From NCBI GenBank assembly GCA_963735785.1, contig CAVTMH010000002.1, positions 107,132-171,131 of the forward strand: DNA of 64,000 nt. Reading direction: 5' to 3'. The notes below the pieces were generated by a model, which did not search any database, had not been told where the DNA came from, and was given only the letters and a program-made list of their open reading frames with translations. A program made the position numbers and the translations under genes. Source of the DNA: an uncultured Chloroflexia bacterium (GTDB lineage: Bacteria; Chloroflexota; Limnocylindria; Limnocylindrales; CSP1-4). Positions 25,911-62,268 of this stretch are shown here, in pieces (position 1 is the first letter of the stretch; each line of letters starts with the position of its first letter).

Positions 25911-26018
25911 GCGCCGCAGCCGGGACGTGGCGCTGGCGGTCGGATCCGGGGTCACGCCCGTATCGTGGCACAGCACGCTCTCCCGCGACTCACCGTGAGG
26001 CCCGGCGGACGGGAACGG

Positions 26019-28071
26019 TCAGCTCGTGGCGACCTCGGAGCCGGAACGGCCGGGCGTTGCCTGCGTGGCCGCGATCGCCTCGCGGACCTGTTCGGCGAGG
26101 CCCGGCGCATCCAGGCGGAGGACACGCCGGAGGTCCGCCACGGACCCGTGATCCACGAACCGGTCCCCGGGGATGCCGACCAGCCGCAACCGGACGTCGC
26201 GGTACGACGGATCCGTCATTCGGGCCTCCTCGAACAGCTCGAGCACCGCGCTCCCGAACCCACCGGTCACGACGCTCTCCTCGAACGTCACGACGAGGCG
26301 TTTCCCACGGGCCGCATCCAGGATGAGCTGACGGTCGAGGGGCTTCGCGAACCTGGCGTTGATGACGCCGACCGACCAGCCCTCGGACTCGAGCGCGGAC
26401 GCCGCCTCGAGAGCCCGGGCCACGATCGGGCCGAACCCGACGAACAGGAGGTCGCGCCCCTCGCGCAGCGTCTCGGCCTGCCCGACCCCGAGCACCGCCG
26501 GTTCGACCGGGGCCAGGCCGAACCCCGCGTCCCGCGGGTAATGGAGCGCGAACGGCCGATCCTGGGCCAGCGCCGTTCGCAGCAGCGACCGCAGCTCCTG
26601 CTCGTCCTTCGGCGACGCGATCACGAGGTTCGGAAGCTGGCGCTGGGCCGGGAGCATGAACATGCCCTGGTGGCTGGTGCCGTCCTCACCCACGAGCCCG
26701 GACCGGTCGACGGCGATGAGCACTGGCTGGTCGTTCTGGCAGACGTCATGGACGGTCTGGTCGAATGCGCGCTGGAGGAACGTGGAGTAGAGCGCGACGA
26801 CCGGGCGCATGCCGCCCATCGCGAGGCCCGTGGCCAGGGTGACCGCGTGCTGCTCCGCGATCCCGACGTCGAATACCCGGTCCGGGAAGACCTCGGCGAA
26901 CTTCGACATCCCGGTCCCAGTCGGCATCCCCGCCGTGATCCCGACGATGCGCCGGTCGTCCCTGGCCGCTTCGATGAGCTCCGCCGCGAAGACCGCCGTG
27001 TAGTTCGGGTGCTTCCTGGGTGCAGCGGGCTCGCGCGTCGGCGCGGCCGCGTCGTCGGCCATGGTCTCGGTCGGCATGGCGACGGGCGCAGCCAGCCCGG
27101 CCGCATCAGCGGCCCGCCCAGCTTTCTTGCCGTCGTACGCGTCGGTCTTCGGCGTGAGCGAGATCGGCGGCAGCGCCGCCCCGTGGAAGCCGACCTGATC
27201 TTCGATCGCCGGCCGGAAGCCGCGGCCTTTCTGGGTCCGGACATGGACGATGGTCGGTCCAGGCAGCGCGAGCGCGGCGCCGAGTGTCTCGATGAGGGCG
27301 CGGAGGTCGTGCCCGGGCACGACGCCGATATATGTGATGCCGAGGTCCTCGAACAGCTGACCGGGCTGGGCGAAGCGAACGACCGAGGCACGGAGCCGCT
27401 TCGACAATTCGAGGATGTGGGGACCGAGGACCGGCACACGCTCGACGGTCCGGTCGTAGGCGCTCTTGCTCTGCCGCCAGGCGCTCGAGAGCTTGATCTG
27501 CGAGAGGTACTTCGAGAAGGCGCCGACGGTCGGGCTGATCGACATCTCGTTGTCGTTGACGACGATGAGCATCTGGGTCTTGCGCTGGCCGATGTCGTTC
27601 AGGGCCTCGAGCGACAGCCCGCTCATCAACGCGGCGTCGCCCACGACGACCGCCACCCGCTCCATCCCGTGGCGCAGGTCACGGGCCTCCGCCAGGCCTT
27701 CGGCGATCGACAGGCCGGTCCCGGCGTGACCGCCATCGAACACATCGTGCGGCGACTCGCTGCGTCGCGGGAAGCCGCCGACACCGTCGAGTGAACGCAG
27801 CGTGCCGAACCGGTCCAGGCGGCCCGTGAGGAGCTTGTGCGGGTAGGCCTGGTGGCCCGTATCCCACACGATGTTATCGCGTGGCGACTCCAGCAAGCGA
27901 TGCAGCGCGATGGTCAGCTCGACGACGCCGAGCGACGAACCGAGGTGGCCGCCCGTCTCGGCGACCGTTCGGATGATCGTGTCGCGGATGTCGGCCGCAA
28001 GCTGCGTCGAGCTGCGCCTCGGACAGGCCCCGCAGATCGGCGGGCCCCTGGAGATCGGAGAGGATGGACAA
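26019..28071 (-). pseudogene. dxs: 1-deoxy-D-xylulose-5-phosphate synthase (dxs) with an apparent +1 frameshift near 28005
   Basis: N-terminal 22 codons (TTG 28071; ..SILSDLQGPADLRGLSEAQLDA) are in one frame. The remainder (QLAADIRDTIIRTVAETGGHLGSSLGVVELTIALH... to the stop at 26019) is in the +1 frame. Both halves are Dxs-like. A single extra G at ~28005 explains the shift. Confidence 0.8.
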
Positions 28072-28217
28072 GGCGGGGGATGCTCCTGTGCACTAACCGC
28101 GGGAGTCTACCGCGGGGCCCGCGGATCGACCGACGGCGGGCGACTCGGATGATAGTTGATACCTCGGCGGAGCAGGTTTCGCCCGCCGCGCCGTGGACGC
28201 GTTGGATCTACGACGGT

Positions 28218-28511
28218 TCAGCCTTCGTCGACGGTGCGCTCCGCGTCGACCTCGACCGTCTCGAGCCCGCCGCCGCTCGCCGTTGGTCGGGCCACGAGCT
28301 GGCGCATCCGCAGCTCCGCGCTGCGCAGGAGCGTCTCGCAGCGCTCGAGGAGGGCCGCGCCACGCTCGTGGAGCGCGAGCGTGCGTTCGAGCGGGAGGCC
28401 CCCGGTCTCGAGCTCCGCGATCGTGCGCTGGAGCTCGGCCAGGGCGTCATCGAACGTCAGGTCCGCGATCGGGGCGGCGGATTCAGTCGGTTCCGTCACC
28501 GGCGTCCTCAT
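28218..28511 (-). CDS. xseB: Exodeoxyribonuclease VII small subunit
   Basis: 97 aa. XseB coiled-coil pattern (FDDALAELQRTIAELETGGLPLERTLALHERGAALLERCETLL). AAGGA RBS before the ATG. Confidence 0.85.
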   Translation of the reverse strand: MRTPVTEPTESAAPIADLTFDDALAELQRTIAELETGGLPLERTLALHERGAALLERCETLLRSAELRMRQLVARPTASGGGLETVEVDAERTVDEG

Positions 28512-28635
28512 CCTTGGGCTCGGCGACCCGGTCGCTCAGGCGTCCGAGTCGCGGCGCGACCAGCATACCGACCACGATCCCGACGATGGCCACGACCGTC
28601 ACCATCCCGACGAACACGAGCAGGTCGCCGATCAA
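28483..28635 (-). CDS. Possible 50-aa single-TM peptide encoded in the xseA-xseB spacer
   Basis: TTG at 28635 overlaps the xseA TGA (TTGA). Product LIGDLLVFVGMVTVVAIVGIVVGMLVAPRLGRLSDRVAEPKDEDAGDGTD. GC3 ~82%. The 3' end overlaps the xseB start by 29 nt in another frame. Confidence 0.25.
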   Translation of the reverse strand: MIGDLLVFVGMVTVVAIVGIVVGMLVAPRLGRLSDRVAEPKDEDAGDGTD

Positions 28636-30143
28636 CCGGCCGTCCTGTCATCGACCGTCGCCGCGATATCGCCTCGAGCGACACGGATGCGCAGCCCGGT
28701 CCCCGCCGGCGCCTCCGCCGGATCGCGGACGATCGAATCATCCGGTGCGCGCCGCACGATCGCGTAGCCGCGCTCCAGCGTCGCCGACGGGCCAAGGACC
28801 GCCAGCGCGGCGGCGGACGCGTCGAGCGATGCCCGAGCCGATGCGATCCGACCGGCGGACTGGCGTGGCAGCGCGTCCGCCGCGGCCTCGACGGCGGCGC
28901 GCGCCGCCCCGACCCGGACGGCCGACAGGCGTGGCAGGGCGAGTGCCGCAGCGTCCAGGCGGAACCGCTCGCGGGCCAGCCGCGCGTCGACGGCGCGCGT
29001 CGCACGGTCGAAGAGCAGGCCGACCTGTTCGCGCGCCGCCGCGAGCCGCGCGGCCGGGCTGACCCTGTCCAACGCTCGCCGCTCGACGACGAGGTCGCGC
29101 GCGGCCGTGGCAAGACGTCGTTCCGTGGCCGCCCCGAGCCGATCGGCGGCTCGCCGCAGCGCGCCGGCCATCTCGAGCCGGTCGGGCACGACGATCTCGG
29201 CGGCCGCCGACGGGGTGGGCGCGCGGACGTCGGCCGCGAAGTCGGCCAGGGTGACGTCGACCTCGTGCCCCACACCGCAGACGACCGGGATGGGGTGGGC
29301 CACGACGGCGCGAACGACCCGCTCGTCGTTGAACGCCCACAGGTCCTCGAGCGATCCGCCACCGCGGGCGAGGATCGTGACGGCGGGTGCATCGTGCGCA
29401 CGGCCCTCGTCGCGGCACACCGCGGCGTAGCGCTCCACGCGCCGGAACGCGGTCACCAGGCTCGCTGGAGCGCCCTCTCCCTGGACGCGCGCCGCGACGA
29501 GCACGACCTGCACGAGTGGCCAACGGCGAGCCAGGACATGGCTGATGTCCCGCCAGACCGCGCCCGACGGGCTCGTGATGACCGCGATCGTCGATGGCCG
29601 CACCGGGAGCGGCCGCTTGCGGCCGGTGTCGAACAGGCCCTCGGCGGCCAGCCGAGCCTTGAGCGCCTCGAACTTGATGGCGAGGTCACCGAAGCCCGCT
29701 GGCTGGATCGTGTCCACGTACAGCTGCATCGCACCGGTCGGCTCGTACAGGTCGATCCGACCATGGACGACGACCCGCAGCCCCGCTTGTGCCTCGAAGG
29801 CGCTGCGGACACGGTCGTCGCGGAACCACACGCACTGGAGCTGGTTGCGCTCGTCCTTGAGGGCGAAGTAGGCGTGGCCGGCGGACGACACGGTCACGCG
29901 TCCGATCTCGCCCTCGACCCAGAGGTCGACCAGACGCTGGTCCTGGCGGATGGCGCCGCGGACCGCCCGCGTGACCTCGCTGACGCCAAGGATCCGGAGC
30001 CCGAACGCTCCGGGCGCGGTGGCGGCGGGTCGCGATCCGTTACCCGGGCGGGGTGTCGGACGGGGCGCCTCCTCGGGATCCGGGCCCACGGCATCCCAGC
30101 TCGGCAGCGCCCACTCGGGCGGGTCGGGATCGCGCGCGCCCAC
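28632..30143 (-). CDS. xseA: Exodeoxyribonuclease VII large subunit
   Basis: N-terminal OB fold (VSEVTRAVRGAIRQDQRLVDLWVEGEIGRVTVSSAGHAYFALKDERNQLQCVWF) and catalytic core. The ATG at 30143 abuts the upstream stop; the true start may be ~45 codons downstream. Confidence 0.85.
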   Translation of the reverse strand: MGARDPDPPEWALPSWDAVGPDPEEAPRPTPRPGNGSRPAATAPGAFGLRILGVSEVTRAVRGAIRQDQRLVDLWVEGEIGRVTVSSAGHAYFALKDERNQLQCVWFRDDRVRSAFEAQAGLRVVVHGRIDLYEPTGAMQLYVDTIQPAGFGDLAIKFEALKARLAAEGLFDTGRKRPLPVRPSTIAVITSPSGAVWRDISHVLARRWPLVQVVLVAARVQGEGAPASLVTAFRRVERYAAVCRDEGRAHDAPAVTILARGGGSLEDLWAFNDERVVRAVVAHPIPVVCGVGHEVDVTLADFAADVRAPTPSAAAEIVVPDRLEMAGALRRAADRLGAATERRLATAARDLVVERRALDRVSPAARLAAAREQVGLLFDRATRAVDARLARERFRLDAAALALPRLSAVRVGAARAAVEAAADALPRQSAGRIASARASLDASAAALAVLGPSATLERGYAIVRRAPDDSIVRDPAEAPAGTGLRIRVARGDIAATVDDRTAG

Positions 30144-30575
30144 CTAGAGGCCCAACTGCACGTGGCGCCAGCGATCTTCGCCCCAGTTCGCCGGCCGGAG
30201 TCGCCTGAGCTCGGTGTCGTCCGGCAACGCGGCAACGTGCTCGACGAGCCTCGTGTGGGCCCGCTCCAGCCACGGAATGACCTCGTCCCGCGGCGCTTGC
30301 CCCTCCGGCCAGGGCTCGACCTCGGGCGTGCCCCACTGCAGGGTCCCGGTCCCGAACGCGTAGTCGTCGCACATGATCTTGCATGCGCCCACGTGGACGA
30401 CGATCGCCTCGATCGACCTCGCCCCCCCGTCTGGCAGCACCCGCCAGGCCTCTTGCGGCACCGTCGCAAGATTCGGCAGCAACGCCTGGCTCTCGTCCGT
30501 TTCCGCGATGCCGCGGCCTCGAAACGCCTCGTCGACGAGGTACAGCAGCGCCTCGATGCCACCGCGGCTCGCCAT
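30144..30575 (-). CDS. Hypothetical protein (143 aa), possibly a DinB/YfiT-like helical bundle
   Basis: ATG 30575 shares one nucleotide with the efp TGA. High-GC3 ORF. The family is a guess from general composition; no metal-binding triad was confirmed. Confidence 0.45.
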   Translation of the reverse strand: MASRGGIEALLYLVDEAFRGRGIAETDESQALLPNLATVPQEAWRVLPDGGARSIEAIVVHVGACKIMCDDYAFGTGTLQWGTPEVEPWPEGQAPRDEVIPWLERAHTRLVEHVAALPDDTELRRLRPANWGEDRWRHVQLGL

Positions 30576-31132
30576 CAGAGCCGCGTCTGGTACTCCCCGG
30601 TCCGTGTGTCGACGCGGATGGTGTCGCCGGGTTCGACGAAGATCGGGACCTGGACGATCAGCCCGGTCTCGGTCGTCGCGGGCTTGCGGGCGCCGGACTG
30701 AGTGTCGCCCGCGAACCCGGGCTCGGTCTCGACCACCGCGAGGTCGACGGTGACCGGCAGCTCGACGCCGATCGTCTCGCCCTGGTAGCTCGTGCGGTCG
30801 AGGGTCATGCCGTCCTTGAGGTACTGCGCGGTGTCGCCAAGCTGGTCGGCGGTGAGGACGAACTGGTCGTAGGTGTCGTTGTCCATGAAGTGGAAGTCGC
30901 GGTCGTCGCGATAGAGGAACTGGACCGGCCGCTTCTCCATCGAGGCGCGCGGCCACTTCGTCCCGGCCTGGAACGAGCGCTCCACGGTCTGGCCACGCTT
31001 GATGTTGCGGAGGGTGATCCGTACCTGGGCCGACCCTCGGCCCATCTTGATGTGGTGGTAATCGAGGATCTGCCAGAGCTCGCCGTCGAGCTCGATGGCC
31101 ACGCCCTTCTTGAGTTCGCCGGTGCTGATCAT
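30575..31132 (-). CDS. efp: Translation elongation factor P
   Basis: 185 aa. EF-P signature (..KKGVAIELDGELWQILDYHHIKMGRGSAQVRITLRNIKRGQ..) with three OB-like domains. Confidence 0.9.
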   Translation of the reverse strand: MISTGELKKGVAIELDGELWQILDYHHIKMGRGSAQVRITLRNIKRGQTVERSFQAGTKWPRASMEKRPVQFLYRDDRDFHFMDNDTYDQFVLTADQLGDTAQYLKDGMTLDRTSYQGETIGVELPVTVDLAVVETEPGFAGDTQSGARKPATTETGLIVQVPIFVEPGDTIRVDTRTGEYQTRL

Positions 31133-31239
31133 GTCGAGGTGGGCTCCTGCGTCGGACCGCCGGGCACGCGCCGACGGGACGGGGATGGTCGGGGTCGAGC
31201 GGCCATTCTAGCCGACGGCTGCCCCGCCCTCGGCGGGTG

Positions 31240-31836
31240 TCAGTCCCCGTTCTCGTAGATCCAGTCGTGCGTGATCGGTGCTCGCCCGTCGACGAACTCG
31301 TACGTCGTCTGGCCCTGCCCCGCGAGCGGCGTGCAGACGGCCGAGCAGCGGACGGTGATGGCTCGAACGGTGTCGTCAACCCCGTCGCCCCCCGGTCCGC
31401 CGCTTGCCATCTGGGTGCACATCTCGGCCGGCACGCCGACGCACGTCGGCTGGATGGGGAGCGGCGATGCGTCCTCCGGCCCGACCCGGGGTGGCTCGGG
31501 CGGCGCCTGGGGCTGCGGATGCGGAGCAGACGCCCATCCGTAGCCGGACGTCTCCGTGCGCCCATCGGCGAAGCGGATCGTGACTTCCGCTTCACCGGTG
31601 GCGTTCGTGCACACAGGCACGGTGCATCGCACCACGACCTGGACGACCGACCCTGGGGCTGCGCCGCTCACGTCGAACGCCTGTTGGCAGGCCGCTCGCG
31701 GCACGCCCTGGCAGACGACCTGGGGATCTCCGACGGGCCCGACCGGGACCGCCGGCAGGGCGTCACAGGCGACACCCAGCGCCGCGATGACACTGACGGC
31801 GAGGAGACGTCGACCGCGCATCACCGATGGTGGCAT
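31240..31836 (-). CDS. Putative secreted lipoprotein built from two tandem ~65-aa Cys-containing repeats
   Basis: Signal peptide plus PROSITE-style lipobox (MPPSVMRGRRLLAVSVIAALGVAC). Two homologous halves, each with a C-x7-C pair and a C-x3/4-C pair, ending in a conserved W (..GYGW / ..THDW). ATG 31836 overlaps the pepQ TGA. Confidence 0.5.
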   Translation of the reverse strand: MPPSVMRGRRLLAVSVIAALGVACDALPAVPVGPVGDPQVVCQGVPRAACQQAFDVSGAAPGSVVQVVVRCTVPVCTNATGEAEVTIRFADGRTETSGYGWASAPHPQPQAPPEPPRVGPEDASPLPIQPTCVGVPAEMCTQMASGGPGGDGVDDTVRAITVRCSAVCTPLAGQGQTTYEFVDGRAPITHDWIYENGD

Positions 31837-33067
31837 CAGCCGACGACTAGCACCTCGCGCGGAAAGCGCGTCACGCGCTCGACGCGGCCGGTGGCGGCAT
31901 CGAGCGTCGATGAGGTCCTCGATGCGCACGCCCATCTCCCCGTCGAGGTAGACGCCGGGCTCGACCGAGAAGACGGTCGGGCTCGGCAGCGGCGTCTCGG
32001 CTGCGCGTCTTGCCGAGCGACGGAGCTTCGTGGGTGGCGAGGCCGATCCCGTGGCCGGTGCCGTGACCGAAATGCTCGCCGTGGCCGCCCGCCTCGATGA
32101 TCGATCGCGCGACGGCGTCCACGGCCCGGCCGCTCGGCAGCTCCCCTCTGGCGGTCGCCGCGGCCTCGACGACCGCGATGGCGGCGGCCTGCGCCGCGGC
32201 CACGAGCTCGTAGACCGCCCAGGTCGCGCGGCGAGGGCTCGCCCACGAACAGGGTCCGGGTCATGTCGCTCCGATAGCCGGCCACCTGCGCCCCGAAGTC
32301 GAAGAGCAGCACCGCATCCGCGAGGATCGGTCGGTCGCCGGGCGCGCCGTGCGGCAGGGCGGCCTCCGGCCCGGACAGGCAGGCGACGTCGAACGCGAGC
32401 GCCTCGGCGCCGCCCGTCCGCATCAGCCACTCCAGCCGGAGCGCGAGCTCCGCCTCGGTCGCCCCGGGCCGGATCTCCGACAGGAGCGTCGCGAGGGCGC
32501 GGTCGGCGACGGCGCACGCGGCGGCGACGCGTTCCAGCTCGGCCGGCTCCTTGATCGCCCGGTCGGCCTCGACCCAGCCCTCGACCGGCACGAGCTCGAC
32601 GTCCGGGGCGGCTGCGGCCAGCCGCTGCCACGTCGCGTGCGAGACGAAGCCGGCCTCGACCCCGACGCGTCGCGCACCGACGGACCGGACCAGGTCCGGC
32701 CAGCGATCGGGCAGGTTGCCGTAGGCCTCGAACAGTCGCGCCTCGGGCGCCTCGCGACGGGCCTGGATCGTGTACCGCGAATCGGCCAGGACCACCGACC
32801 TCGTCGCCACCGACAAGGAACTGCCCGGAGTTGCCGGCCGACCTTCTCCTCACCCTCGGCGAGGGTGAACCCGGTCAGGTAGCGCATGTGCTCGCGGCGC
32901 ACGCCGAAGTAGGCATCGATGCCTTCGTCGGCGAACCGCGTGCGCAGGCGCCCGAGGCGCGCCGGACGCGCGGCTCGGTCGGCCTCCGCCCAGGCCCGCT
33001 GCTGCGCGGCGTCGGGGGGCGGGGCGAAGTCCTCGGGGTCGGGCCAGCCGTCCCGGGACGCGCTCAC
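31836..33067 (-). pseudogene. pepQ: Xaa-Pro aminopeptidase (M24B, PepP/PepQ-like) interrupted by five +1 frameshifts
   Basis: Creatinase-N and M24 catalytic segments are all present but spread over three frames. The segments are RLGRLRTRFADEGIDAYF..YLTGF; SAGNSGQFLVGGDEV; SVVLADSRYTIQA...MTRTLFVGEPSPRD; AVYELVAAAQAAAIAVV...HGTGHGIGLATHEAPSLG; PTVFSVEPGVYLDGEMGVRIEDLI; and LDAATGRVERVTRFPREVLVVG*. Shifts lie near 32845, 32796, 32218, ~31985 and 31905. ATG 33067 overlaps the mltG stop. Confidence 0.75.
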
Positions 33068-34467
33068 GGGATATAGCCGTACTTGCGCCGGTTCTCGTCG
33101 TGCTCGGCCTTGTTCTTGGCGAAGGCGTGCGAGCCGCCTCCCTCGGGGATCGCCAGGAAGTAGATGTACTTGTCCTCGGTATCGGGATGCAGCGCTGCGT
33201 CGATGGAGGCGAGCGTCGGCGTCACGATCGGTGCCGGGATGAGGCCCGGCTGCGTGTAGGTCTGGAAGCCAAGCAACGCATCCGGCAGGACGATGTCCTT
33301 GAGGCCGATGTCCTCGGGCACGGTCCAGAACACGTAGTCCTTCCAGGTCCCGAAGTCCCGCTCCTCGAGCTGCACGGTGTCGAACGCGTAGATGACCGTC
33401 GGGTCGGCGTTGAGGATCTTGTTCTTGATGCCGGGGATCCCGTCGATCCGGTTCTGGTAGACACCGGCGATCAGCGGGCGCTCCTCATTGACCACCGCCT
33501 CACGCTCCACGATCGAGGCGAGCGACAACACCTGGTAGAAGGTCAGGCCGCGCTCCTGCGGCACGGTCAGCTTTGCCTCCCCGACGGCGGCGATGAAGCC
33601 ATCGAGCATCCGGCGGATGAGCTCCTCCGGCGTGGTGTCCGGCAAGACGTTGTAGGTGCCCGGCCACAGGAACCCTTCCAGGGAGGGCGCAGTGCCCTCC
33701 GGCACGTCGCGGAGGACGCGTTCGAGCCACGGGTAGTCCGCGAGCAACGCCGCGGGCGGTTCCTTCGCGATCTCATAGAACTCGCGGGGGTCCATCTCGA
33801 GGGTGGGCAGCGTCTGGAGCTTGGCCGTGATCTGCTCGAGCCGAAGCTGCGTCCGCAGCGCGATCTGCACGAACGGGACCTCCGGCGGCGCGAGGAGCGC
33901 CACGACGAGTTGTTCCGGTGTCATGTTCCTCCGCAGGACGAAGGTCCCCTGCTGCAGATCGCCCGTGAGCTCCCGGTCGCTTGCGATGAACACGAACGCG
34001 CGGGCATCGCGGATGAGGTCCTGGTCAGCCAGGCGCGCCGCGATCGTCGTCGCGGTGTCGCCCTCCTCCACGAGGAACTCGACCTGCTCCGGGTCGTTCG
34101 AGACCGGCTCGGTCAGTGCGTCGCCGAGATCCTCGCGGACGAGATCCGCGACGAACGGCAGGTTGAGGGCGGCCGGGCTGTCGGCTGCCCAGCTGAGGAT
34201 CGCGGAGTTGACCAGCGGACGCAGCGCGGTCAGGGCGATGACCAGGACGAGCGCTGCGAGCATCAGCGCGAACACGAGGAACCTGGCGACCCCGCCCAGG
34301 CCGCCGCCACCGCCGCCACCGCGCCTGCCCCCGCCGCTGCCGTGGCCCGACCGTCGCGACGGCTCGTACGCCTCGGGCACGTAGTCGGTCGCGTAGGCGT
34401 CCGATTCGAACCTGCGGGCGTGGGGCTGGCGCCGGTCGCGCGGGCGTCCGCCGGAGCGGATCGTCAT
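33064..34467 (-). CDS. mltG: Endolytic murein transglycosylase MltG (YceG family)
   Basis: N-terminal TM helix plus YceG-like domain (..GTYNVLPDTTPEELIRRM..; ..IVEREAVVNEERPLIAGVYQNRI..). Confidence 0.85.
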   Translation of the reverse strand: MTIRSGGRPRDRRQPHARRFESDAYATDYVPEAYEPSRRSGHGSGGGRRGGGGGGGLGGVARFLVFALMLAALVLVIALTALRPLVNSAILSWAADSPAALNLPFVADLVREDLGDALTEPVSNDPEQVEFLVEEGDTATTIAARLADQDLIRDARAFVFIASDRELTGDLQQGTFVLRRNMTPEQLVVALLAPPEVPFVQIALRTQLRLEQITAKLQTLPTLEMDPREFYEIAKEPPAALLADYPWLERVLRDVPEGTAPSLEGFLWPGTYNVLPDTTPEELIRRMLDGFIAAVGEAKLTVPQERGLTFYQVLSLASIVEREAVVNEERPLIAGVYQNRIDGIPGIKNKILNADPTVIYAFDTVQLEERDFGTWKDYVFWTVPEDIGLKDIVLPDALLGFQTYTQPGLIPAPIVTPTLASIDAALHPDTEDKYIYFLAIPEGGGSHAFAKNKAEHDENRRKYGYIP

Positions 34468-34961
34468 CTGAGGATCTCCGGTGTGTGGGGCTCGGTAGGG
34501 GCGGACCCGGAGCGCCGGGTGTCGAGGGCATCTTGCAGGATGACGGCGGCCGCCTCGCGGTCGACCCGTGCCCGGTACTCGTTGCGCTGGTGGCGGGACG
34601 GCGGGCCGCCCGAGCGGCCACGCTTCATGGGGCCCAATCGCGTCTCGGCGACGTGGCTGCTCAGGCGCTCATCGTGCAGGGTGATCGCGACACGGTCGCC
34701 CAAACGGGCGCCGATGTTCCCCGCCCACGCTCTCGTGATGGCCGCCTGGGGACCTTCGTGCCCAGCGGCATCGATCGGCAGACCGATGACGAGCTCCTCG
34801 ATGTCGTGCGCCGTGATGAGTGCAAGCAGCGATGCGGCATCGAGGCCCGCGTGACGCCCGCGTCGGATGGTCGTCAGTGGCCGCGCCCCAGCGCCCGGGC
34901 CGTCCGCGATGGCGACGCCGATGCGCCGCTCCCCGAGGTCGATGCCCAGGGCCCGCGTCAT
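34464..34961 (-). CDS. ruvX: Holliday-junction resolvase-like nuclease RuvX (YqgF)
   Basis: MTRALGIDLGERRIGVAIAD.. RNase-H-like YqgF signature. ATGA overlaps at both ends. Confidence 0.85.
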   Translation of the reverse strand: MTRALGIDLGERRIGVAIADGPGAGARPLTTIRRGRHAGLDAASLLALITAHDIEELVIGLPIDAAGHEGPQAAITRAWAGNIGARLGDRVAITLHDERLSSHVAETRLGPMKRGRSGGPPSRHQRNEYRARVDREAAAVILQDALDTRRSGSAPTEPHTPEILR

Positions 34962-36967
34962 CGCGATCCCTCCGGCTCGGAGGCGGGCGACTCGGATACG
35001 ACGGGGGCCGCGGACGCCCGCCCAGGTCCATCGGACGCGGCAGGACCGACCGTCTCGACCTCGACCCGCGATTCGATCGTCGGGATCGTGCCCACCCAGT
35101 CGGGCCAGACGGTCAGTTCGGCCTCGCCGTAGGTCGCAAGGATCTCGCGTGCCTGGGCCAGGGGCTTGCCCATGATGTCGGCCTCGATGGCCGCCGGATC
35201 GAGAACGAGGACCTGGCGGGCGGTCACGACGACCGGGAAGGTGATGACCCCGTTCGAGATCTCGGCCGGGGCCGGGACCACCTGGCCCGAGCGCTCGACG
35301 AGGACGAAGCCCGGCTCCACGCTGGAGGCGATCCGCGCCTCGGCGACGGTCTGCACGGGGGCGGTATCGACCGCCACGACCGTCCCTGTCGCGGTCGCCG
35401 CGAGCTCGAAGGTCTCCACCTCCTCGCCGACCCGGGTGGCCGGATCGACCGCGAACGTCGGGTCTCCGAGGGCCTTCGTCTCGGGGAACACCGTCGCGGA
35501 ATCCCCAGGCAGGTCGGGGTCGTCGAGTCGCTCGTCGAACGCCGCGCTCAACCGATCTCGCAGGGCAATGATCGCCGCGTCGATGTCCTCCTGCCGCACG
35601 CGCGGGAATTCGGTGCGCGAGCCACCCGTGGTCGCCTCCGGATTCGTCACATTCAGAAACGCACCGGTCTCCCCGCGAGGGGTCTCGGTGATCCTTCGTG
35701 CCTCGACGTTCCCGTCGGGTCCCGCATCCACTGCGGTCACGCCGACCGATCTGTTGGACGGGATGACCTCGAATCCGTCATCTGACGCTACGAGGTCAGC
35801 CGGTGGCAGGGTGACGTTCTCGTCTGTCCGGAACTGGATGCCGGACTCAGTGCTCACGACGGAACCGCTCCTTATCGTATTTGAGCTGGTCGGGTCGAGG
35901 TTGTCGAAACGGACCGTGCCTTTCGCCTTCTCCTCCTCGATCCGTTGCCCGGTCGCCGGGAAGCTGTCGCTCGCTTCGACGTCGACCGTCAGCGACTGCG
36001 CCGGCACGACACCGCCGGCGGGATCGGGCTCGGTCGCGCTGGTGCTCGCCACGATCCGCATGGACACGGGACCGATGCTGGCCTCGCGCGGCGTGATGAC
36101 GGCCGTCGCCGTCGGGAGGTAGAGGTACGCACCGACACCGCCGACGACGAGCGCGAGGGCGGCCACGGCGAGGCCGATGACCAGCGGCGTTCGACCGATC
36201 GTTGGGCGGAAGGCCCGTCCGAATGGGTCCAGGCGTCGCGGTCCGGGCCGGTCGAGATCCATGGCGGGGGTGTCGGCCACGACCCTTGCCGCCGGGATCG
36301 CCGCCGGAGCACGCGCGCCGCCCCTCGGTCCTCGCGTCGACCTGGGTGACGATCGCGTCGCTTCGCCCGGCGTCGCCGCATCGCCCCACAGCCCGGCGGT
36401 CGCGGCGACGGCACCCGCGGCGCCGGTCCCCGCGGCAGCGGCGCCCGCCGCGCCCGCGTCGGCGGCTCGACCCGGCGTCGCGACCGTCTCGCTGATGAGC
36501 ATCGGCTCCAGGTCGACATCCGGACCGGCGCCGGGCTCGGCAGCCGTGGCGGCCGCCCCCGTCGCCGCCGCCCCGGTCGCCACCGCCCCCGGCGCGTCAT
36601 CCGTCGCCGCGGCATCCTCTGGGCCGACCGCCACCGCGGCGGCAGCAGGACCAGCATCGACCGCCGGCGCACCCTTCGCCGGACGGCCTGCCTCGCCGGA
36701 CGTCTCGTACTCCGCGACCGTCGCGAAGATGGGCAGGCCGGCCGATGCCGCGAGCGCCCGCGTCGCGGGGTCGCCCGCGATGATCGACAGCTGCTTGCCG
36801 TTCGTCATGGCGTCACGGGCGAGCAACCGGAAGTTGATGCGCGAGGTCGCGACGCGCGAGCCGTACGGGAGCACGACGGCCACGCGGCTCCCATCCCAGC
36901 CCCGGATCCGCGCGGCCGCCGACGTGATCTCGTCGTCGACATCGAGGTAGATGACGCCGGCTGCCAC
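34958..36967 (-). CDS. Large single-pass membrane protein, function unknown
   Basis: Domain order: ~95-aa cytoplasmic N-domain; ~170-aa Ala/Gly/Pro-rich low-complexity linker; one TM helix (LVIGLAVAALALVVGGVGAYLYL); ~370-aa extracytoplasmic beta-rich domain. GTG at 36967 lies 2 nt after the upstream FtsA-like stop; the track start at 37234 would overlap that gene by 265 nt. Confidence 0.6.
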   Translation of the reverse strand: MAAGVIYLDVDDEITSAAARIRGWDGSRVAVVLPYGSRVATSRINFRLLARDAMTNGKQLSIIAGDPATRALAASAGLPIFATVAEYETSGEAGRPAKGAPAVDAGPAAAAVAVGPEDAAATDDAPGAVATGAAATGAAATAAEPGAGPDVDLEPMLISETVATPGRAADAGAAGAAAAGTGAAGAVAATAGLWGDAATPGEATRSSPRSTRGPRGGARAPAAIPAARVVADTPAMDLDRPGPRRLDPFGRAFRPTIGRTPLVIGLAVAALALVVGGVGAYLYLPTATAVITPREASIGPVSMRIVASTSATEPDPAGGVVPAQSLTVDVEASDSFPATGQRIEEEKAKGTVRFDNLDPTSSNTIRSGSVVSTESGIQFRTDENVTLPPADLVASDDGFEVIPSNRSVGVTAVDAGPDGNVEARRITETPRGETGAFLNVTNPEATTGGSRTEFPRVRQEDIDAAIIALRDRLSAAFDERLDDPDLPGDSATVFPETKALGDPTFAVDPATRVGEEVETFELAATATGTVVAVDTAPVQTVAEARIASSVEPGFVLVERSGQVVPAPAEISNGVITFPVVVTARQVLVLDPAAIEADIMGKPLAQAREILATYGEAELTVWPDWVGTIPTIESRVEVETVGPAASDGPGRASAAPVVSESPASEPEGSR

Positions 36968-36969
36968 GA

Positions 36970-38232: not shown

Positions 38233-41006
38233 CAGCCCTCCGCGTCGATGCGGCCGAGGAGCGCGTCCCGGAGGGCGTTCCGCGCGTCCGTGAGGCCGCC
38301 GCGATCGGTGCCCATGCCCTGTGCCATCTGCGGTCGACCACCGCCCTTCGCCCCGATCGGCCCAGCGGCGGCCCTGACGAGGTCGCCGGCCCCGATCCCG
38401 CGCTCGACCAGGTCATCGGACACCGTTACGAAGACCTGCGGCGCCTCGGCGTCGAGGAACAGCGCGATGACCCCCGACGGCAGCGCGTGGCGGATCGCCT
38501 TCGCGGCGGCCTTGAGCGCGTCCATGGACTCGTACGGGATCGCGGCCGCGACGAGCCGCACGCCCGGGGCCACCTCCTCCGCCTTCGCCGCCAACTCGGT
38601 CGGCTGCGGCACCCCGGTCGCAGCCCCCGCCCTGAGTCGGCGCTTCGTGTCGCGCAACTCCTCCTGCAACGCGGCGATGCGATCTTCGACAGCCTCGATG
38701 GTCTGGGCCCCGACCGCCCCGGCGACACGGTCCAGGACTTCGCCGCGTTCACGTGCCAGCCGGTCCGCCCCGACGCCGGTGAGGGCTTCGATCCGGCGCT
38801 GGCCCGAGCCGATGCTGCGCTCGCCGGTGATGACGAAGCCGCCGACCTGGCCCGTGGCCCGGCAATGCGTCCCCCCGCACAGCTCGAAGCTGTAGTCCTC
38901 GACCCGGATGGTGCGCACGGTCTCGCCGTACTTCTCGTCGAAGAAGGCGTCCGCCCCCTGCTCGATCGCATCGGCCATCGGCATGAACGCGACCGTGACC
39001 TGGCGGTCGTCGCGGACGATGCGTCGGACCTCGTCCTCGATCGCGCGCGTCTCGTCGTCGGTCAGGGCGCGATCGAACGGGTAGTCGAAGCGGAGCGAGT
39101 CGGGCGTCACGAGCGACCCCGCCTGGCGGGCACGATCGCCGACCACGTTGCGGAGCGCCCGGTGCAGCAGGTGGGTCCCGGTGTGATTGCGCATCGTGTG
39201 CGCACGCCGCTCGGCGTCCACCACGGCCTGGACCGTCTCCCCGACGCGCACGCGACCGTGCAACGTGCCGCGCTGGACGATCAGCCCTCCGACCGGCCGC
39301 TGCGTGTCGGTCACGGTGAACAGCTCGCTGCCGCCGCCCGGTTCTCGGATCGTGCCCTGGTCCCCGACCTGGCCGCCGCCCTCCGCGTAGAACGGCGTGC
39401 GATCGAGCACGACCTCCGCCTCGCCATGGCCGGTGAGCTCGTCGAACTCCAGGCCGTCGCGCACGATGGCCACGACCCGCCCCTCGGCGGTCGTCGCCTC
39501 GTAGCCCAGGAACTCGGTGTCGCCGTGGCGCCCCTGGATCGCGCTGTACAGCGACGTCAGTTCGGCGTGACGGCTGAGCTCGGCCTTCTTGCCAGAGCGG
39601 CTGCGCTCTCGCTGTTCCGCGAGGGCATCGTGGAACCCGGCGAGATCGACGGCGCAACCGTATTCGGCGGCGAGCTCCACGGTCAGATCGACCGGAAACC
39701 CGTAGGTATCGTGGAGCCGGAACGCGACATCGCCATCGAGGACCGGCGCAGCCGCGGGCAGGTCCTCCGGCCGGCGGCCGATGACCCGGTCGGGTAAGGT
39801 CCCGCCCGCGGTCTCGCGGATCGCCTCGTCGAGGAGCCGGGACCCAGCGTCGAGGGTCCGCGCGAACTGGGCCTCCTCGCGCGCGATGGTCGAGAGGATC
39901 ACGTCGCGTTTCTCGGCCAGGTGCGGATGTGCCTCGGCCATCGTGTCGATGACGACGATCGCCGCCTCCGCCATGAACGGATCGCGCCGGCCGAGGAGCC
40001 GACCGTGACGCACGGCTCGGCGCAGGATCCGACGCAGGACGTAGCCCCTCCCTTCATTGCCAGGAAGGACGTCATCGGCGATGAGGAACGTGACGGCACG
40101 TGCGTGGTCTGCGATGACCTGGTAGCTGAAACGCTCCCCCTCGAACGTGTCCGGGTCGTGCCCGAGCAGCTCCTGCATCCGGGCGTGGATCGGCGTGAAC
40201 AGGTCGGTGTCGTAGTTGGTGGGGACCTGCTGGATGACGCTCGCAAGACGCTCGAGGCCCATGCCGGTGTCGACGCCAGGGGCGGGCAGCGGCTTCAGCG
40301 AGCCGTCCGGCTGGAGGTCGAACTCCATGAAGACCAGGTTCCAGATCTCGAGCCAGCGCGGGCACTGCTCGCTGTGGTCCGGGACGCAGTGGGGGCCCTC
40401 CGACAGGTGGGCACCGCGATCGAAGTGGATCTCGCTGCACGGCCCACACGGCCCGACGTCGGCCATGCGCCACCAGTTCTTCTCGTCACCCTTGGGGAAG
40501 TCGCCCCAGCGGGCGAGCCGGTCCGGCGGGAGGCCGATCTCGTCGCGCCAAACCTCGAAGGCGAGGTCGTCGGTGGTGTACGTCGTGGCGGCGAGCCGCT
40601 CGCCCGGTATGCCAAGGTCGCGCGTGAGGAAATCCCAGGCCCAGTGGATCGCCTCACGCTTGAAGTAGTCCCCGAAGGACCAATTGCCGAGCATCTCGAA
40701 GAATGTGTGGTGTCGGGGCGTCCGGCCGACCTCCTCGAAGTCGTTGTGCTTGCCTGCCACGCGGAGGACGCGCTGGTAATCGACTGCTCGCGTGTAGCTG
40801 CGCTTCTCAGTGCCGGTCAGGACGTCCTTGAACTGGACCATCCCCGAGTTCGTGAACAGCAGCGTCTGGTCACCAGCAGGGACGAGGCTGGCGCCGGGAA
40901 CGACCGTATGGTCACGCTCGGCGAAGAACTCGAGGAACCGCCGTCGGATCTCCGCGGACGGCAACGAACGGATCCGGGGATCCCGGGTGACGGATGGGGT
41001 CGACAT
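38232..41006 (-). CDS. alaS: Alanine--tRNA ligase
   Basis: Class II aaRS motifs, editing-domain HxxxH/CxxxH and C-terminal DHHA1. ATG 41006 (MSTPSVTRDPRIRSLPSAEIRRRFLEFF..) was chosen over the upstream Arg-rich track start. Confidence 0.9.
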   Translation of the reverse strand: MSTPSVTRDPRIRSLPSAEIRRRFLEFFAERDHTVVPGASLVPAGDQTLLFTNSGMVQFKDVLTGTEKRSYTRAVDYQRVLRVAGKHNDFEEVGRTPRHHTFFEMLGNWSFGDYFKREAIHWAWDFLTRDLGIPGERLAATTYTTDDLAFEVWRDEIGLPPDRLARWGDFPKGDEKNWWRMADVGPCGPCSEIHFDRGAHLSEGPHCVPDHSEQCPRWLEIWNLVFMEFDLQPDGSLKPLPAPGVDTGMGLERLASVIQQVPTNYDTDLFTPIHARMQELLGHDPDTFEGERFSYQVIADHARAVTFLIADDVLPGNEGRGYVLRRILRRAVRHGRLLGRRDPFMAEAAIVVIDTMAEAHPHLAEKRDVILSTIAREEAQFARTLDAGSRLLDEAIRETAGGTLPDRVIGRRPEDLPAAAPVLDGDVAFRLHDTYGFPVDLTVELAAEYGCAVDLAGFHDALAEQRERSRSGKKAELSRHAELTSLYSAIQGRHGDTEFLGYEATTAEGRVVAIVRDGLEFDELTGHGEAEVVLDRTPFYAEGGGQVGDQGTIREPGGGSELFTVTDTQRPVGGLIVQRGTLHGRVRVGETVQAVVDAERRAHTMRNHTGTHLLHRALRNVVGDRARQAGSLVTPDSLRFDYPFDRALTDDETRAIEDEVRRIVRDDRQVTVAFMPMADAIEQGADAFFDEKYGETVRTIRVEDYSFELCGGTHCRATGQVGGFVITGERSIGSGQRRIEALTGVGADRLARERGEVLDRVAGAVGAQTIEAVEDRIAALQEELRDTKRRLRAGAATGVPQPTELAAKAEEVAPGVRLVAAAIPYESMDALKAAAKAIRHALPSGVIALFLDAEAPQVFVTVSDDLVERGIGAGDLVRAAAGPIGAKGGGRPQMAQGMGTDRGGLTDARNALRDALLGRIDAEG

Positions 41007-41572
41007 CGGCCGCAATGGTACCGAACCGAGCCGGGCGGGCTCTGTCATGCATCCGTGATCCGGGCAACACCGGCGACGGTGCGGCGGCCGAAGGGGCCCC
41101 GCTCGAGCTCGCATGGCTGGTCTCGCAGGTCGACGGGGCCAGCTGTCTGCCCCTCGAGGGCGCGATCGTCGATGTCTGGCATTGCGACGCCCTCGGCGTC
41201 TATTCCGGTGTGCAGGGCAGCCCGGGGACCGACTTCCTGCGCGGATTCCAGCGCACCGACGCGAACGGGGCGGCCTCGTTCACGACCATCTACCCGGGCT
41301 GGTACACGGGCCGCGCCGTGCACATCCATTTCAAGATCCGCACGGACCCCGACGCCGAAGCCGGGTTCGAGTTCACCTCGCAGCTGTTCTTCGACGACGC
41401 GCTCAGTCAGCAGGTCTACACGTCGGGCGTCTACGCGTCGAAGGGCCCGCAGGACCAGACGAACCAGAGCGATGGCATCTTCAACCAGAGCGGCGGGGCA
41501 ACGCTCCTGGACGTGACCAAGGTCGGCGACAGCTATAAGACGACATTCGAGATCGCGGTCCAGCTCGCCTGA
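40994..41572 (+). CDS. Intradiol ring-cleavage dioxygenase-like core, apparently N-terminally truncated (possible gene remnant)
   Basis: PLELAWLVSQVDGASCLPLEGAIVDVWHCDALGVYSG...TDANGAASFTTIYPGWYTGRAVHIHFKI matches the intradiol dioxygenase beta-sandwich. The expected ~80-aa N-terminal region and signal are missing. The only in-frame ATGs (40994, 41015) overlap or abut the alaS start on the other strand. Confidence 0.4.
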   Translation: MGSTSAAMVPNRAGRALSCIRDPGNTGDGAAAEGAPLELAWLVSQVDGASCLPLEGAIVDVWHCDALGVYSGVQGSPGTDFLRGFQRTDANGAASFTTIYPGWYTGRAVHIHFKIRTDPDAEAGFEFTSQLFFDDALSQQVYTSGVYASKGPQDQTNQSDGIFNQSGGATLLDVTKVGDSYKTTFEIAVQLA

Positions 41573-41604
41573 CCCGCGCGGGGCGATCGGGGCGCGAGCT
41601 AGCG

Positions 41605-41625
41605 CTGCGCGCCGCCGCGGCGCAG
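41605..41625. terminator. GC-rich imperfect hairpin between convergent genes
   Basis: ctgcgc-gccgccgcg-gcgcag is a 6-bp stem. It sits between the dioxygenase-like stop (41572) and the GlsB stop (41724). Confidence 0.2.
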
Positions 41626-41723
41626 GCCGCGCCAGATGCGGGACCCGGCGATCACGGCGCCGATGATCGCGCCGATGGTCAGGCCACGCAGGAACGTGCT
41701 GCTCGTCCGCTCGTCCCGCCGGT

Positions 41724-42005
41724 TCACGCGCGACGTCCCGCGGTGGGGCCCAGGACCGCCACGATCGAGACGAGCCCGATGCCGACCCACGCGACGACCG
41801 ACGCGCCGAGCAGGTGGTAATCGCCGATCGTCAGGACATCGAACCCGAGACGGCCGGAGATGGCGTCACCGGCCCATGCGCCGAGGATGGCGGCCGCCAC
41901 GAGCAGCGGCAGGCGACCGCCGGCGCTCCCGCGGATCGCCACCGACAGCGCGGCGTGGAAGATGCCGAGCAGGACGGACATGACCAGCGACGGCTCCAGG
42001 CTCAC
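41724..42005 (-). CDS. GlsB/YeaQ/YmgE family small membrane protein (transglycosylase-associated protein)
   Basis: 93 aa with three predicted TM helices and a Gly-rich pattern typical of the family. GTG 42005 overlaps the mnmA TGA (GTGA). Confidence 0.5.
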
Positions 42006-44319: not shown

Positions 44320-44378
44320 CTGGCGGATTGTACGTCCGGGCGTCCGGGCGTCCGGCCCGGAACGCCCCGACCGGCGCG

Positions 44379-46121: not shown

Positions 46122-46136
46122 GGCTGTCCCTCCGGG

Positions 46137-58488: not shown

Positions 58489-60108
58489 TCAGCCCCCGTA
58501 CCCGAGTTCGGCGAGCAATTCCAGCGCCGTCGCCCGTTCATCCCACGCTCGTTCGCCGTCCGGTCCGATGATCGAGCGCTCGTGGCCCTTGCCGGCCAGC
58601 AGGACGATGTCACCGGGTCGAGCGGCCTCGAACGCGGCCGCGATGGCCGCCCGGCGATCCGCGATGAGCTGCAGGTCCCCCCCACGCCGCCGACCGGCCG
58701 CCTCGGCGCCCCGCGCGATCTCGTCGAGGATGGCGTCGCGATCCTCGCCGCGCGGATCCTCGTCGGTGACGACCACGAGGCGGGCCCGCTCGCCGGCGAT
58801 CCGGCCCATCTGGGGGCGCTTGGCGGTGTCGCGTTCCCCGGCCGATCCGAAGACGGCGATCAACCCGCCGCCCCGCGCCGCGGCTGCGGGTGCCAGCAGG
58901 TCGAGGACCATCTGGAGCGAGGCCGGGCTGTGGGCGAAGTCGACGATCACGCCGAACGGCTGGCCGGCATCGACCCGCTCCATCCGGCCGGGAACGCCCT
59001 CGACGGAGGCAAGGCCCTCGCGCACGGCGGCCGGATCCAGGGCCAGGACCTCACCGAGGGCGACGACCGCCAGGGCGTTGTGCACGTTGAACCGCCCGGC
59101 CAGTCGGAGCCCGAGCGTCCCCGCGCCGCCGGGCGCCTCGATGTCCGCTCGGAGACCGCCCGCGTCCTCCGTGATGCGTGTCGCGCGGACATCGGCCGCG
59201 GTCTCGGTGCCATAGGTCACGACCGTCGCGCCGGCGTCGCGGGCCGTGCCGATGAACACTCCGGCGGATGGGTCGTCGACGTTGACGATGGCCGCCGGAG
59301 CGATCGGCCGCGGCTTGCTGACGTCCCGCGCGGCGCGCAGGCGCTCGAACAGCGACAGCTTGGCGTCGCGGTAGGCCTCCCACGTCCCGTGCAGCTCCAG
59401 GTGCTCATGGGTGAGGTTGGTCAGGATCGCGACGTCGTAGGCCACGCTCGACACGCGGTCGAGGGCGAGCCCGTGCGAGGTCGTCTCGACGATCGCGACG
59501 TCGTCGCCGGCGTCGACCATCGCGCGCAGCGTCGCCTGCAGCTCGGGTGCCTCGGGCGTGGTCGCATGCGCTTCGTGGGCCTCGGTCCGCCCGCCGACCC
59601 GGGTCGCGATCGTGCCGATCATCCCGGCGCGCAGGCCCGCGGCCTCGAGGGCTGCGACCGCGAGATACGCCGTGGTGGTCTTGCCGTCCGTGCCGGTGAT
59701 CCCGACGACCGTGAGCTCGTTCGAGGGATCGCCGAACCACCAGGCCGCCGCGCTGGCGAGGGCCGGGCGGGTGGCATCGACGACGAGTTGCGCGGCGGCC
59801 ACCTCGGGGAGTGGCCGCTCCACGATCAGGGCGGTCGCGCCCTGGGTTACGGCCGCGGCCGCGAACTCGTGACCGTCGACCCGACCACCGGGGATGGCCA
59901 CGAACAGGCTCCCCGGGACCGCGTTCCGCGAATCGTGCGTCACCCCGGTCACCTCGACGTCGGCGAGTGCGGCACTGCCGACGGCACGGCCATCGACCCG
60001 TGTACCGCGAAGCCGTCCCTCCGCACCGAGACGGCCGACGAGCTCGCCGAGGGGGCGGGGTGGGCGGGAACCGGTCGGATCGGGGAAGGCCCCCTCGGGG
60101 GCGCTCAT
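58489..60108 (-). CDS. murE: UDP-N-acetylmuramoyl-L-alanyl-D-glutamate--diamino acid ligase MurE, with DEDPR in place of the DNPR motif
   Basis: MurE N-domain (..VTGVTHDSRNAVPGSLFVAIPGGRVDGHEF..), P-loop GITGTDGKTTT, ..TNLTHEHLELHG.., and C-terminal ..VVVTDEDPRGEDRD... ATG 60108 overlaps the femAB-2 stop (ATGA). Confidence 0.85.
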   Translation of the reverse strand: MSAPEGAFPDPTGSRPPRPLGELVGRLGAEGRLRGTRVDGRAVGSAALADVEVTGVTHDSRNAVPGSLFVAIPGGRVDGHEFAAAAVTQGATALIVERPLPEVAAAQLVVDATRPALASAAAWWFGDPSNELTVVGITGTDGKTTTAYLAVAALEAAGLRAGMIGTIATRVGGRTEAHEAHATTPEAPELQATLRAMVDAGDDVAIVETTSHGLALDRVSSVAYDVAILTNLTHEHLELHGTWEAYRDAKLSLFERLRAARDVSKPRPIAPAAIVNVDDPSAGVFIGTARDAGATVVTYGTETAADVRATRITEDAGGLRADIEAPGGAGTLGLRLAGRFNVHNALAVVALGEVLALDPAAVREGLASVEGVPGRMERVDAGQPFGVIVDFAHSPASLQMVLDLLAPAAAARGGGLIAVFGSAGERDTAKRPQMGRIAGERARLVVVTDEDPRGEDRDAILDEIARGAEAAGRRRGGDLQLIADRRAAIAAAFEAARPGDIVLLAGKGHERSIIGPDGERAWDERATALELLAELGYGG

Positions 60109-61201
60109 CGGCCAACGAGCCTGGCGGCGCGTGACACGACGCGCCCCGCGGCGTAGCGCCACGGCCGGAACACGCGTTCCTGCGCGCCGGTCATCTCGAC
60201 CCAGCTCGCACCGAACGAGCGCTTGTGCTCGTACAGCCCGGCCATCGGATCGCCCGTGGCGGGTTCCGCGTGGTCCGGGGCCACGTCCACGCCCCCGAGG
60301 TCCATCTCCGTTCGACCCTCACGGATCGCGAGCTGGATGGCTCTCCAGCGCAGCAGGTGCATGACCCCCGGGTTCGTGTCGCGGACGCCCGGGGGATCGC
60401 CCGAGTGGACCGTGGACAGCCGCTCCCCGTGGCGATACAGGATCAGGCCGCCGAGCGCCCGTCCCGGATCGGAGCTGCTCGCGAGCCTCGAGGTAGACAA
60501 GGAGCCCGGCGGCATGGGCCGCGGTCCACCAGTCGAGAAACACCTGGCGTGGCCCGAAGCGGAACCCGCGCCGCTGTCCCGTCCCCTCGAGCAAGGTCGC
60601 GAACCCGCCGAGGACCGCATCGAGCGGCTGCGACGGTTGTTCGAACAGTGGCTGACCGCCTTCCCAGCCCGCGCTGTCATAACGGTGGACGACCACGCCG
60701 TCCGTCTCCGCCGCGCTGAGCCGCTGACGCGTGCTCTTCGAGAAGCCGGCTCGCACCGCGTCGTCGTCGGCATCGGGGGCAAGGGCGAGGCTGACCCGAT
60801 GGCGGGAGGGCTGGATCTCGGGGATCGGTCGGAACCCGGCGTCGTGCAGCGCCCGGCCGTAGGCGGGCCTGGTCGGCGGGCACCTCCGCATCCGTCGCGA
60901 GGACGGCCACCCCACGACCCGCCAGCCACGCCCCGAGCTCGGCGACACGACTGCCGGCAGCCGAAGGATCCTCGCCGGGCGCGACGATCGGACCGCGCGG
61001 GGAGTAGGCGCTCGCTCCACCGATCAAGGGGAAGGGACGGAGCAGGACGAGCGCACCATGCTCCGGACCGAGCACTACATGGAGCGGCCGCCAGCCGAGA
61101 CGTCGTCGCTGCTCGGCCCAGGTCCGGGACTGATAGACGTGCCCGCCGGGGGCGTGGACGGTCCGTTGATCCCAGTCGGCGAGCTCGGCGTCTGTGGCCA
61201 C
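60105..61201 (-). pseudogene. Second FemAB-family (FemX-like aminoacyl-tRNA-dependent peptidoglycan branch) gene with two +1 frameshifts
   Basis: GTG 61201 lies 12 nt after the femAB-1 stop. The N-terminal third (..LADWDQRTVHAPGGHVYQSRTWAEQRRRLGWRPLHVV..) is in one frame. The middle (..GRALHDAGFRPIPEIQPSRHRVSLALAPDADDD..) and the C-terminal third (..GGLILYRHGERLSTVHSGD...VEMTGAQERVFRPWRY..) are each in a different frame. All three align with the intact paralogue. Shifts lie near 60868 and 60471. Confidence 0.65.
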
Positions 61202-61212
61202 GCGCGGTGCGC

Positions 61213-62268
61213 TCACTCCGCGCCCTCCGCGCTGCCGAACGCCGATGCGTTCCCGCCGCCGACGCCATGTCTCCGTCGCGCCCACCAGACACGCGCCCGA
61301 CCCGCGCCCTCGTAGACGGAACGGCCGATCGGGTCCAGCACGAGGTCCCACGCCCCGATGTAGCGAACCTCGCGCCCGCCGAAGCCGGTCTTGAAATGGG
61401 CGATGCCACCGGTCGCGAGGCCCCACAGGTCGTAGCTCGTGGCGCCGCCCTCGCGTGACGACCGGATCGCCTCCCACTTGAGGAGGTAATTGGCCCGGTT
61501 CTCGGCGCCGGCCTGGGTCATGCCGCCGTACGGCTCCACGACGCGGGGCCCGCAGCGGACCAGGAACAGCGTCGCGAGCGGGTCGCCAGCGGCCGACTGC
61601 GCGAAGAGCAGCCGTGCGCGACCGGCCGGTCGATATGCTTCCCACACGTCCCGATAGGCGCCCTCCGTGCGGATCAGGAAGCCGGCGCGGTCCGCCGTGT
61701 CGCGGTAGATCCGGTAGAACTCCCCCAGCCGGTCGCCGTCGGCGTCAACGACGACCACGCCGGCCGACCTCGCCTTGTTCACGTACTGGCGCCATTTCTT
61801 GCGCAGGTCACCCCACAGGGCGTCCTCGTCGGGGCCGAGGTCGATGACCCTCGTCGAGGCCGGCTGGATCGGCGGCGCGGGGCGCCAGCCGGCTGCGCCC
61901 AGGGCGCGGCGCAGGGACCCGTCGGCGTCGTGCGGCCCGTCGAGCTCGATCTCGGGGTCGATCCGGACGTGCGAGACGCGTCCGGCGGCAGGTGGCAGGT
62001 CGGTCCGGATACGCTCGGTGACGTCACCGATCTCCTGCTCCGACCAGGCGCGCGCCACCGGACCACGGGGTGCGTACGCGAAGCCCCACGGCAAGGGGGA
62101 CGGCCGGCGCACGAGGATCTGCGCCCCGATGCCGTCACCGGTGATCCGGTGGGCGGCCCAGCCGTTGACCGCCTTGACCTTGGCCCAACCCGTCAGTTGG
62201 AGGTACGAGCCCGGGTCGCTCGACTCGACGAAGGCGTCCCAGTCACTCGCCTCGGAGGATGCGGTCAC
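61213..62268 (-). CDS. FemAB-family peptidoglycan interpeptide-bridge aminoacyltransferase (intact)
   Basis: 351 aa. FemAB-type tandem GNAT-like pattern (..YLQLTGWAKVK.., ..FLVRCGPRVVEPYGGMTQAGAENRANYLLKWEAIRSSREGGATSYDLWG..). ATGA overlap with the murJ stop. Confidence 0.8.
   Translation of the reverse strand: MTASSEASDWDAFVESSDPGSYLQLTGWAKVKAVNGWAAHRITGDGIGAQILVRRPSPLPWGFAYAPRGPVARAWSEQEIGDVTERIRTDLPPAAGRVSHVRIDPEIELDGPHDADGSLRRALGAAGWRPAPPIQPASTRVIDLGPDEDALWGDLRKKWRQYVNKARSAGVVVVDADGDRLGEFYRIYRDTADRAGFLIRTEGAYRDVWEAYRPAGRARLLFAQSAAGDPLATLFLVRCGPRVVEPYGGMTQAGAENRANYLLKWEAIRSSREGGATSYDLWGLATGGIAHFKTGFGGREVRYIGAWDLVLDPIGRSVYEGAGRARVWWARRRHGVGGGNASAFGSAEGAE

Follow-up and report, generated by a model that had tools for sequence, protein, structure and literature searches.

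Results

The window analyzed here is a stretch of 64,000 nt in which a gene for an M24B Xaa-Pro aminopeptidase, pepQ (31836..33067, minus strand), lies within the gene order ruvX, mltG, pepQ, a lipoprotein-like ORF and efp. The genome is of the Limnocylindria type of Chloroflexota, and this ruvX-mltG-pepQ-(lipoprotein)-efp cluster is a conserved one. Its upstream neighbor, mltG (YceG; 33064..34467, minus strand), is intact, and the TGA stop of mltG overlaps the GTG start of pepQ in a GTGA junction, which an earlier note on this DNA had given as ATGA. Downstream are the lipoprotein-like ORF (31240..31836, minus strand), which is intact and has no Pfam match, and an intact efp gene for elongation factor P (30575..31132, minus strand). 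The lipoprotein gene had been described as coupled to pepQ at a TGATG overlap, but homology with the closest relative suggests a start at GTGATG about 12-15 nt further on, and the conserved start codon is probably the GTG or ATG at ~31824/31821.

The closest relative of the window is a nanopore-only metagenome-assembled genome (MAG), "uncultured Chloroflexia bacterium MFD09206.bin.1.36", from the Microflora Danica (MFD) collection. Positions 22952-42362 of the window are collinear with its pepQ locus (L001) at 93-96% DNA identity, and positions 44351-64000 with a second segment of the same contig (L082) at ~90-96% identity. In L001 an AHSA1/SRPBCC-like gene (11232-12255), encoded on the opposite strand, separates pepQ from the lipoprotein gene. 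Of the genomes compared, this insertion is found only in MFD09206.bin.1.36; neither the window nor any other relative with the downstream lipoprotein gene has it. The resulting 1-kb difference past pepQ was considered as a rearrangement of the window and rejected, as the AHSA1-like gene is unique to L001 and the arrangement in the window is the common one. Since the other relatives share that arrangement, no rearrangement has taken place at the 3' end of pepQ in the window.

As deposited, pepQ is 1232 nt long, while its orthologs are 1227 nt. Alignment with the closest ortholog (L001:10001-11227, 1227 nt, ~94% DNA identity) accounts for the whole excess by five single-nucleotide insertions, at 32843, 32797, 32221, 32006 and 31907, and no deletion. 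Along the minus strand the reading frame therefore runs 0, 1, 2, 0, 1, 2, so that the recognizable M24B pieces are spread across three frames and no single uninterrupted ORF covers both domains. This bears out the earlier proposal of five +1 shifts; four of the positions given for them were within 3 nt of those found here, while the one placed at ~31985 is actually at 32006.

The first insertion (32843) is an extra G in GAGAAG(G)TCGGCC, where G becomes GG, and it shifts the frame by +1 past codon 75; the former frame stays open for a further 137 codons. The second (32797) is an extra C in GAGGT(C)GGTGG or, alternatively, given two synonymous differences nearby, a duplicated G. The third (32218..32221) is seen in GACCTGGGCGG compared with GACC-GGGCGG in L001, and can be placed at the T at 32221 relative to L001 or equally well at one G of the GGG at 32220-32218 relative to CTG GCG. 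We think it is probably an expansion of GG to GGG, as the leucine present in most homologs implies CTG GCG. The fourth (32006) is an extra base in AAGAC(G)CGCAGCC (a G or C within ACGCGC) and the fifth (31907) an extra A in ATCG(A)CGCTCGA. In both of these the added base is unlike either neighbor, and the fourth is for that reason not a slippage-type event. The five insertions fall within 940 nt, and most of the sites lie outside long homopolymers.

Removal of the five bases restores an ORF of 408 aa with no in-frame stop. The stitched protein matches both domain models over practically their full length, PF01321 Creatinase_N with an E value of 9e-22 (model positions 1-128 of 128) and PF00557 Peptidase_M24 with an E value of 2e-53 (2-204 of 208). 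Its closest homolog, P0001 (408 aa), is encoded on a 1.57-Mb contig of MFD09206.bin.1.36; identity to it was 93% for a first version stitched by hand and 94% for the version corrected by the five bases. The corrected protein also aligns end to end with the Thermotoga maritima aminopeptidase P (PDB 2zsg; E value 4e-61), from which it differs by an N-terminal extension of ~35 aa. The motifs DFGA, RSDMTR (D.TR), HGIGL, VEPG (EPG) and RIED (RIE) align with identical motifs in 2zsg, and we take these to carry the five M24B metal ligands (Asp, Asp, His, Glu, Glu). Judged by domain architecture and ligand motifs, the predicted product is a standard M24B Xaa-Pro aminopeptidase. It shares the Creatinase_N plus Peptidase_M24 organization, with both models covered in full, with the PepP/PepQ family, including 2zsg and the proline dipeptidase 3q6d, and the deposited gene departs from that family in being divided over three frames by five extra bases. 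All 120 homologs among the protein matches listed are full length (404-422 aa).

The corrected gene bears no mark of decay. Its dN/dS relative to L001 is 0.236, from 27 nonsynonymous and 40 synonymous differences, and lies among the values of its 15 neighbors (0.01-0.46); neither a stop nor an excess of nonsynonymous changes points to relaxed selection. When the amino acid differences were polarized with 39 further homologs as outgroups, seven derived changes, all conservative, fell in the window and ten in P0001, with seven ambiguous. The window lineage has no more derived changes than its relative, and therefore no relaxation of constraint is apparent in it. Mutation-accumulation studies give indel-to-substitution ratios of 0.1-0.3. 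At such ratios, neutral drift lasting long enough for four further indels predicts ~10-29 extra nonsynonymous changes in pepQ, and none of these was seen.

Two other genes in the window are disrupted in the same manner. dxs (26019..28071, minus strand), a gene that is normally indispensable, has one +1 insertion, a C at 28009, 62 nt into the gene, so that codons 1-21 are read in one frame and the remainder of the protein in the next. That second frame offers no start codon before a TTG at 27896 (~codon 59), and the conserved GGH region is therefore untranslatable as deposited. The second of two tandem FemAB-like genes (60105..61216, minus strand) has two +1 insertions, at 60865 (CC to CCC) and at 60480 (a G unlike both neighbors). 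The L082 ortholog (4174-5283, 369 aa) has no such disruption, and the first FemAB-like paralog in the window (~61213-62270) is intact as well; after correction the second gene has a dN/dS of 0.168 and no stop. The premise that most of the other ~60 kb is free of indels is therefore wrong, as dxs and this FemAB-like gene show. The window has eight frameshifts in coding sequence, every one a +1 insertion and none a deletion, and at least four of the eight (32006, 31907, 28009 and 60480) add a base that differs from both neighbors, which is atypical of natural replication slippage. Scanned from end to end for coding potential, the window showed no split gene beyond pepQ, dxs and the second FemAB-like gene, and Pfam searches with 24 further ORFs from the parts outside the coverage of L001 and L082 found no additional one. 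A second M24B copy was not found within the 64-kb window.

The insertions are strongly clustered, as had been noticed before. Five of the eight events fall in one 1.23-kb gene out of ~58 kb of coding sequence, for which uniform placement gives P ~1e-5 across all genes, and in this respect the density in pepQ is out of line with the rest of the assembly. A search for a common sequence context at the insertion sites gave GGTCGG at two sites and TCGACGC at two, neither significant (P 0.04-0.09). We also considered the insertions as pairs of strain-specific SNP alleles placed in tandem, and set this aside. It fits site 3 (a T/G polymorphism that separates L001 from other homologs) but is otherwise indistinguishable from chance, with four of six sites adjoining third codon positions against an expectation of 2/3.

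For a baseline, 15 proteins of L001 served as tblastn queries against the pepQ loci of 80 GTDB species representatives. Of the 81 loci fetched, L001 was left out as a duplicate of L002. Across the 26 loci from MFD MAGs there were 52 frameshifts in 393 kb compared, located in 15 of the loci, and across the 54 loci from other MAGs there was a single frameshift in 574 kb. The frameshifts in the MFD loci affect conserved genes including alaS, dxs, efp and mltG, and among events in which the two parts abut cleanly 25 are +1 and five are -1. On average the MFD loci carry one frameshift, mostly +1, in about every 7.5 kb of housekeeping genes. One locus (L066) alone has 12 in ~14 kb compared. Frameshifts in the MFD loci are not clustered, with four gaps shorter than 300 nt against 4.8 expected.

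pepQ itself is one uninterrupted frame in 78 of the 81 related loci. The two split orthologs, with +1 shifts once in L049 and twice in L080, are both from nanopore MFD MAGs, and the one remaining locus has only a second, unrelated match elsewhere. The MFD long-read catalogue was assembled from nanopore data only, by Flye (--meta, --nano-hq) followed by one round of Medaka, and its authors report nanopore-associated errors in low-coverage MAGs (PMC12313526). Two scans of metagenome contigs in which the inserted base was made optional, for sites 1 and 2 and for site 4, gave no match and thus no independent assembly with the pepQ insertions.

Discussion

Based on the data presented above, we propose that the organism itself has an undamaged pepQ and that the five extra bases stem from erroneous insertions in the consensus of a long-read MAG, a reading to which we assign a probability of about 0.7. 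We favor it because the gene has been preserved under purifying selection while carrying a spectrum of insertions only, in part not of the slippage type, and because a defect of the identical type occurs in dxs and throughout related nanopore MAGs but is nearly absent elsewhere. The same kind of frameshift is thus found in an indispensable gene of the same assembly (dxs, 28009), and the signature is present in the related long-read MAGs and practically missing from the other MAGs of the clade (52 in 393 kb compared with 1 in 574 kb). Since the closest relative is nanopore-only and has the same frameshift signature, we infer that the window also comes from a long-read assembly. The spurious insertions would have arisen during consensus calling or polishing of a nanopore-type metagenome assembly, probably where local read support was poor. 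Low coverage or a mixture of strains in a local patch would account for the cluster in pepQ, and locally reduced read quality or coverage may be why the events are not spread evenly.

The pattern resembles the indel errors of nanopore assemblies as seen in the MFD genomes (PMC12313526), which are single-base, mainly +1, and located in conserved genes including essential ones, in 15 of the 26 MFD loci as in the window. It departs from them in having five events in 940 nt, while those in the MFD loci are roughly uniform. For that reason the clustering inside error-rich MFD loci, which we tried as a model for the cluster in pepQ, was rejected. The clustering (P ~1e-5), for which the MFD loci provide no comparable case, counts against an artefact, and so does the location of seven of the eight events in two genes that look dispensable, as real pseudogenes would also show.

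It is because of this clustering that we retain, as the main, though less likely, alternative, the possibility that pepQ is a real and very recent pseudogene (possibly together with the FemAB-like paralog), formed by successive single-base insertions, with the remnant kept in the operon. M24B peptidases are often dispensable or redundant. The distribution of events, with five in pepQ, two in the second FemAB-like gene and one elsewhere in ~58 kb of coding sequence, is what such decay would give, related nanopore MAGs do not show comparable clustering of errors, and the dN/dS of pepQ (0.236) is among the higher values of its neighborhood. Pseudogenes broken by several frameshifts are known in bacteria, for example in Mycobacterium leprae, and pepQ is like them in having several frame disruptions in a recognizable gene within an operon. 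It is unlike them in showing no relaxed constraint, no stop and no deletion, and in having insertions only, some of which are not of the slippage type. The window lineage has no excess of amino acid changes (seven versus ten) and there is no stop in the original frame, although four indels after the first would imply 10-29 extra nonsynonymous changes. At least half of the insertions do not duplicate a neighboring base, dxs is disrupted by the same type of event, and the 64-kb window contains no second M24B copy.

The earlier note had left the choice between a recently inactivated gene and a locally bad assembly. The absence of decay, the insertions in dxs and the FemAB-like gene, and the signature in the MFD genomes now make the latter much the better supported of the two, and the disruption fits a long-read indel artefact better than it fits natural pseudogene decay.

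If the insertions are nevertheless real, they would be the trace of a localized mutagenic burst of +1 insertions, some of them non-templated, that struck pepQ five times and the FemAB-like paralog twice in this Limnocylindria lineage. We regard this as very improbable. Such a burst must then have happened so recently that the gene has had no time for further decay, and it would point to a mutational process of an unusual kind, gene-targeted or patch-wise, in place of the ordinary decay of a pseudogene.

Expression of pepQ by recoding, that is by programmed +1 ribosomal frameshifting or by correction of the transcript at five sites, is effectively excluded on sequence grounds: although every one of the five shifts is +1 and conservation of the corrected product is perfect, no slippery or hungry-codon motif is common to the sites, none of them adjoins an in-frame stop, no A or T run would permit transcriptional slippage, and the sites are not conserved, as 78 of 81 related loci are uninterrupted and the 120 listed homologs are full length. 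The known prfB-type system of programmed frameshifting has the same +1 direction as the shifts in pepQ, but pepQ differs in that its five sites are unrelated, lack a stop or slippery codon where the frame changes, and are not conserved in orthologs.

With consensus error as the preferred explanation, the disruption of pepQ is of little biological interest and is probably not a biological feature; nothing in it represents new biology. Were the insertions real, the loss of the pepQ that adjoins efp would amount to a minor example of gene decay. The observation does matter for the use of such genomes. Even essential genes are commonly hit by +1 frameshifts in the nanopore-only MAGs of this high-GC clade, and calls of pseudogenes, inferences of gene loss and estimates of completeness from them therefore need confirmation at the level of the reads.

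Other differences between the window and its closest relative

Within the collinear segments the window and MFD09206.bin.1.36 differ at several further places. At the 3' end of ruvX (window 34519) the window and L001 differ by a 2-nt indel, as a result of which the C-terminal ~17 aa of RuvX are not the same in the two. Between the mreB-like gene and ruvX lies a Baseplate_J-like gene, in which in-frame indels of 12 and 18 nt and a divergent patch are found relative to L001 (35660-35789 and 36580). Its dN/dS relative to L001 is 0.39, and a Baseplate_J domain protein is unusual in a housekeeping cluster of this type.

Upstream of alaS the window has no counterpart of L001 1308-2001, and so loses the first ~115 codons of a Dioxygenase_C gene together with an ORF of 62 aa. 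In L001 that Dioxygenase_C gene (543-1652, minus strand) is itself frameshifted by an extra A at ~960, while the corresponding ORF of the window (40994..41572) reads through. Relative to L082, the window has an additional stretch at 53353-54224, where an extra alpha/beta-hydrolase gene (53083-54213, plus strand) separates hisS from aspS, and at 55565-56098 it has a different ORF where L082 carries a PhdYeFM-PIN toxin-antitoxin pair (L082 9357-9982).
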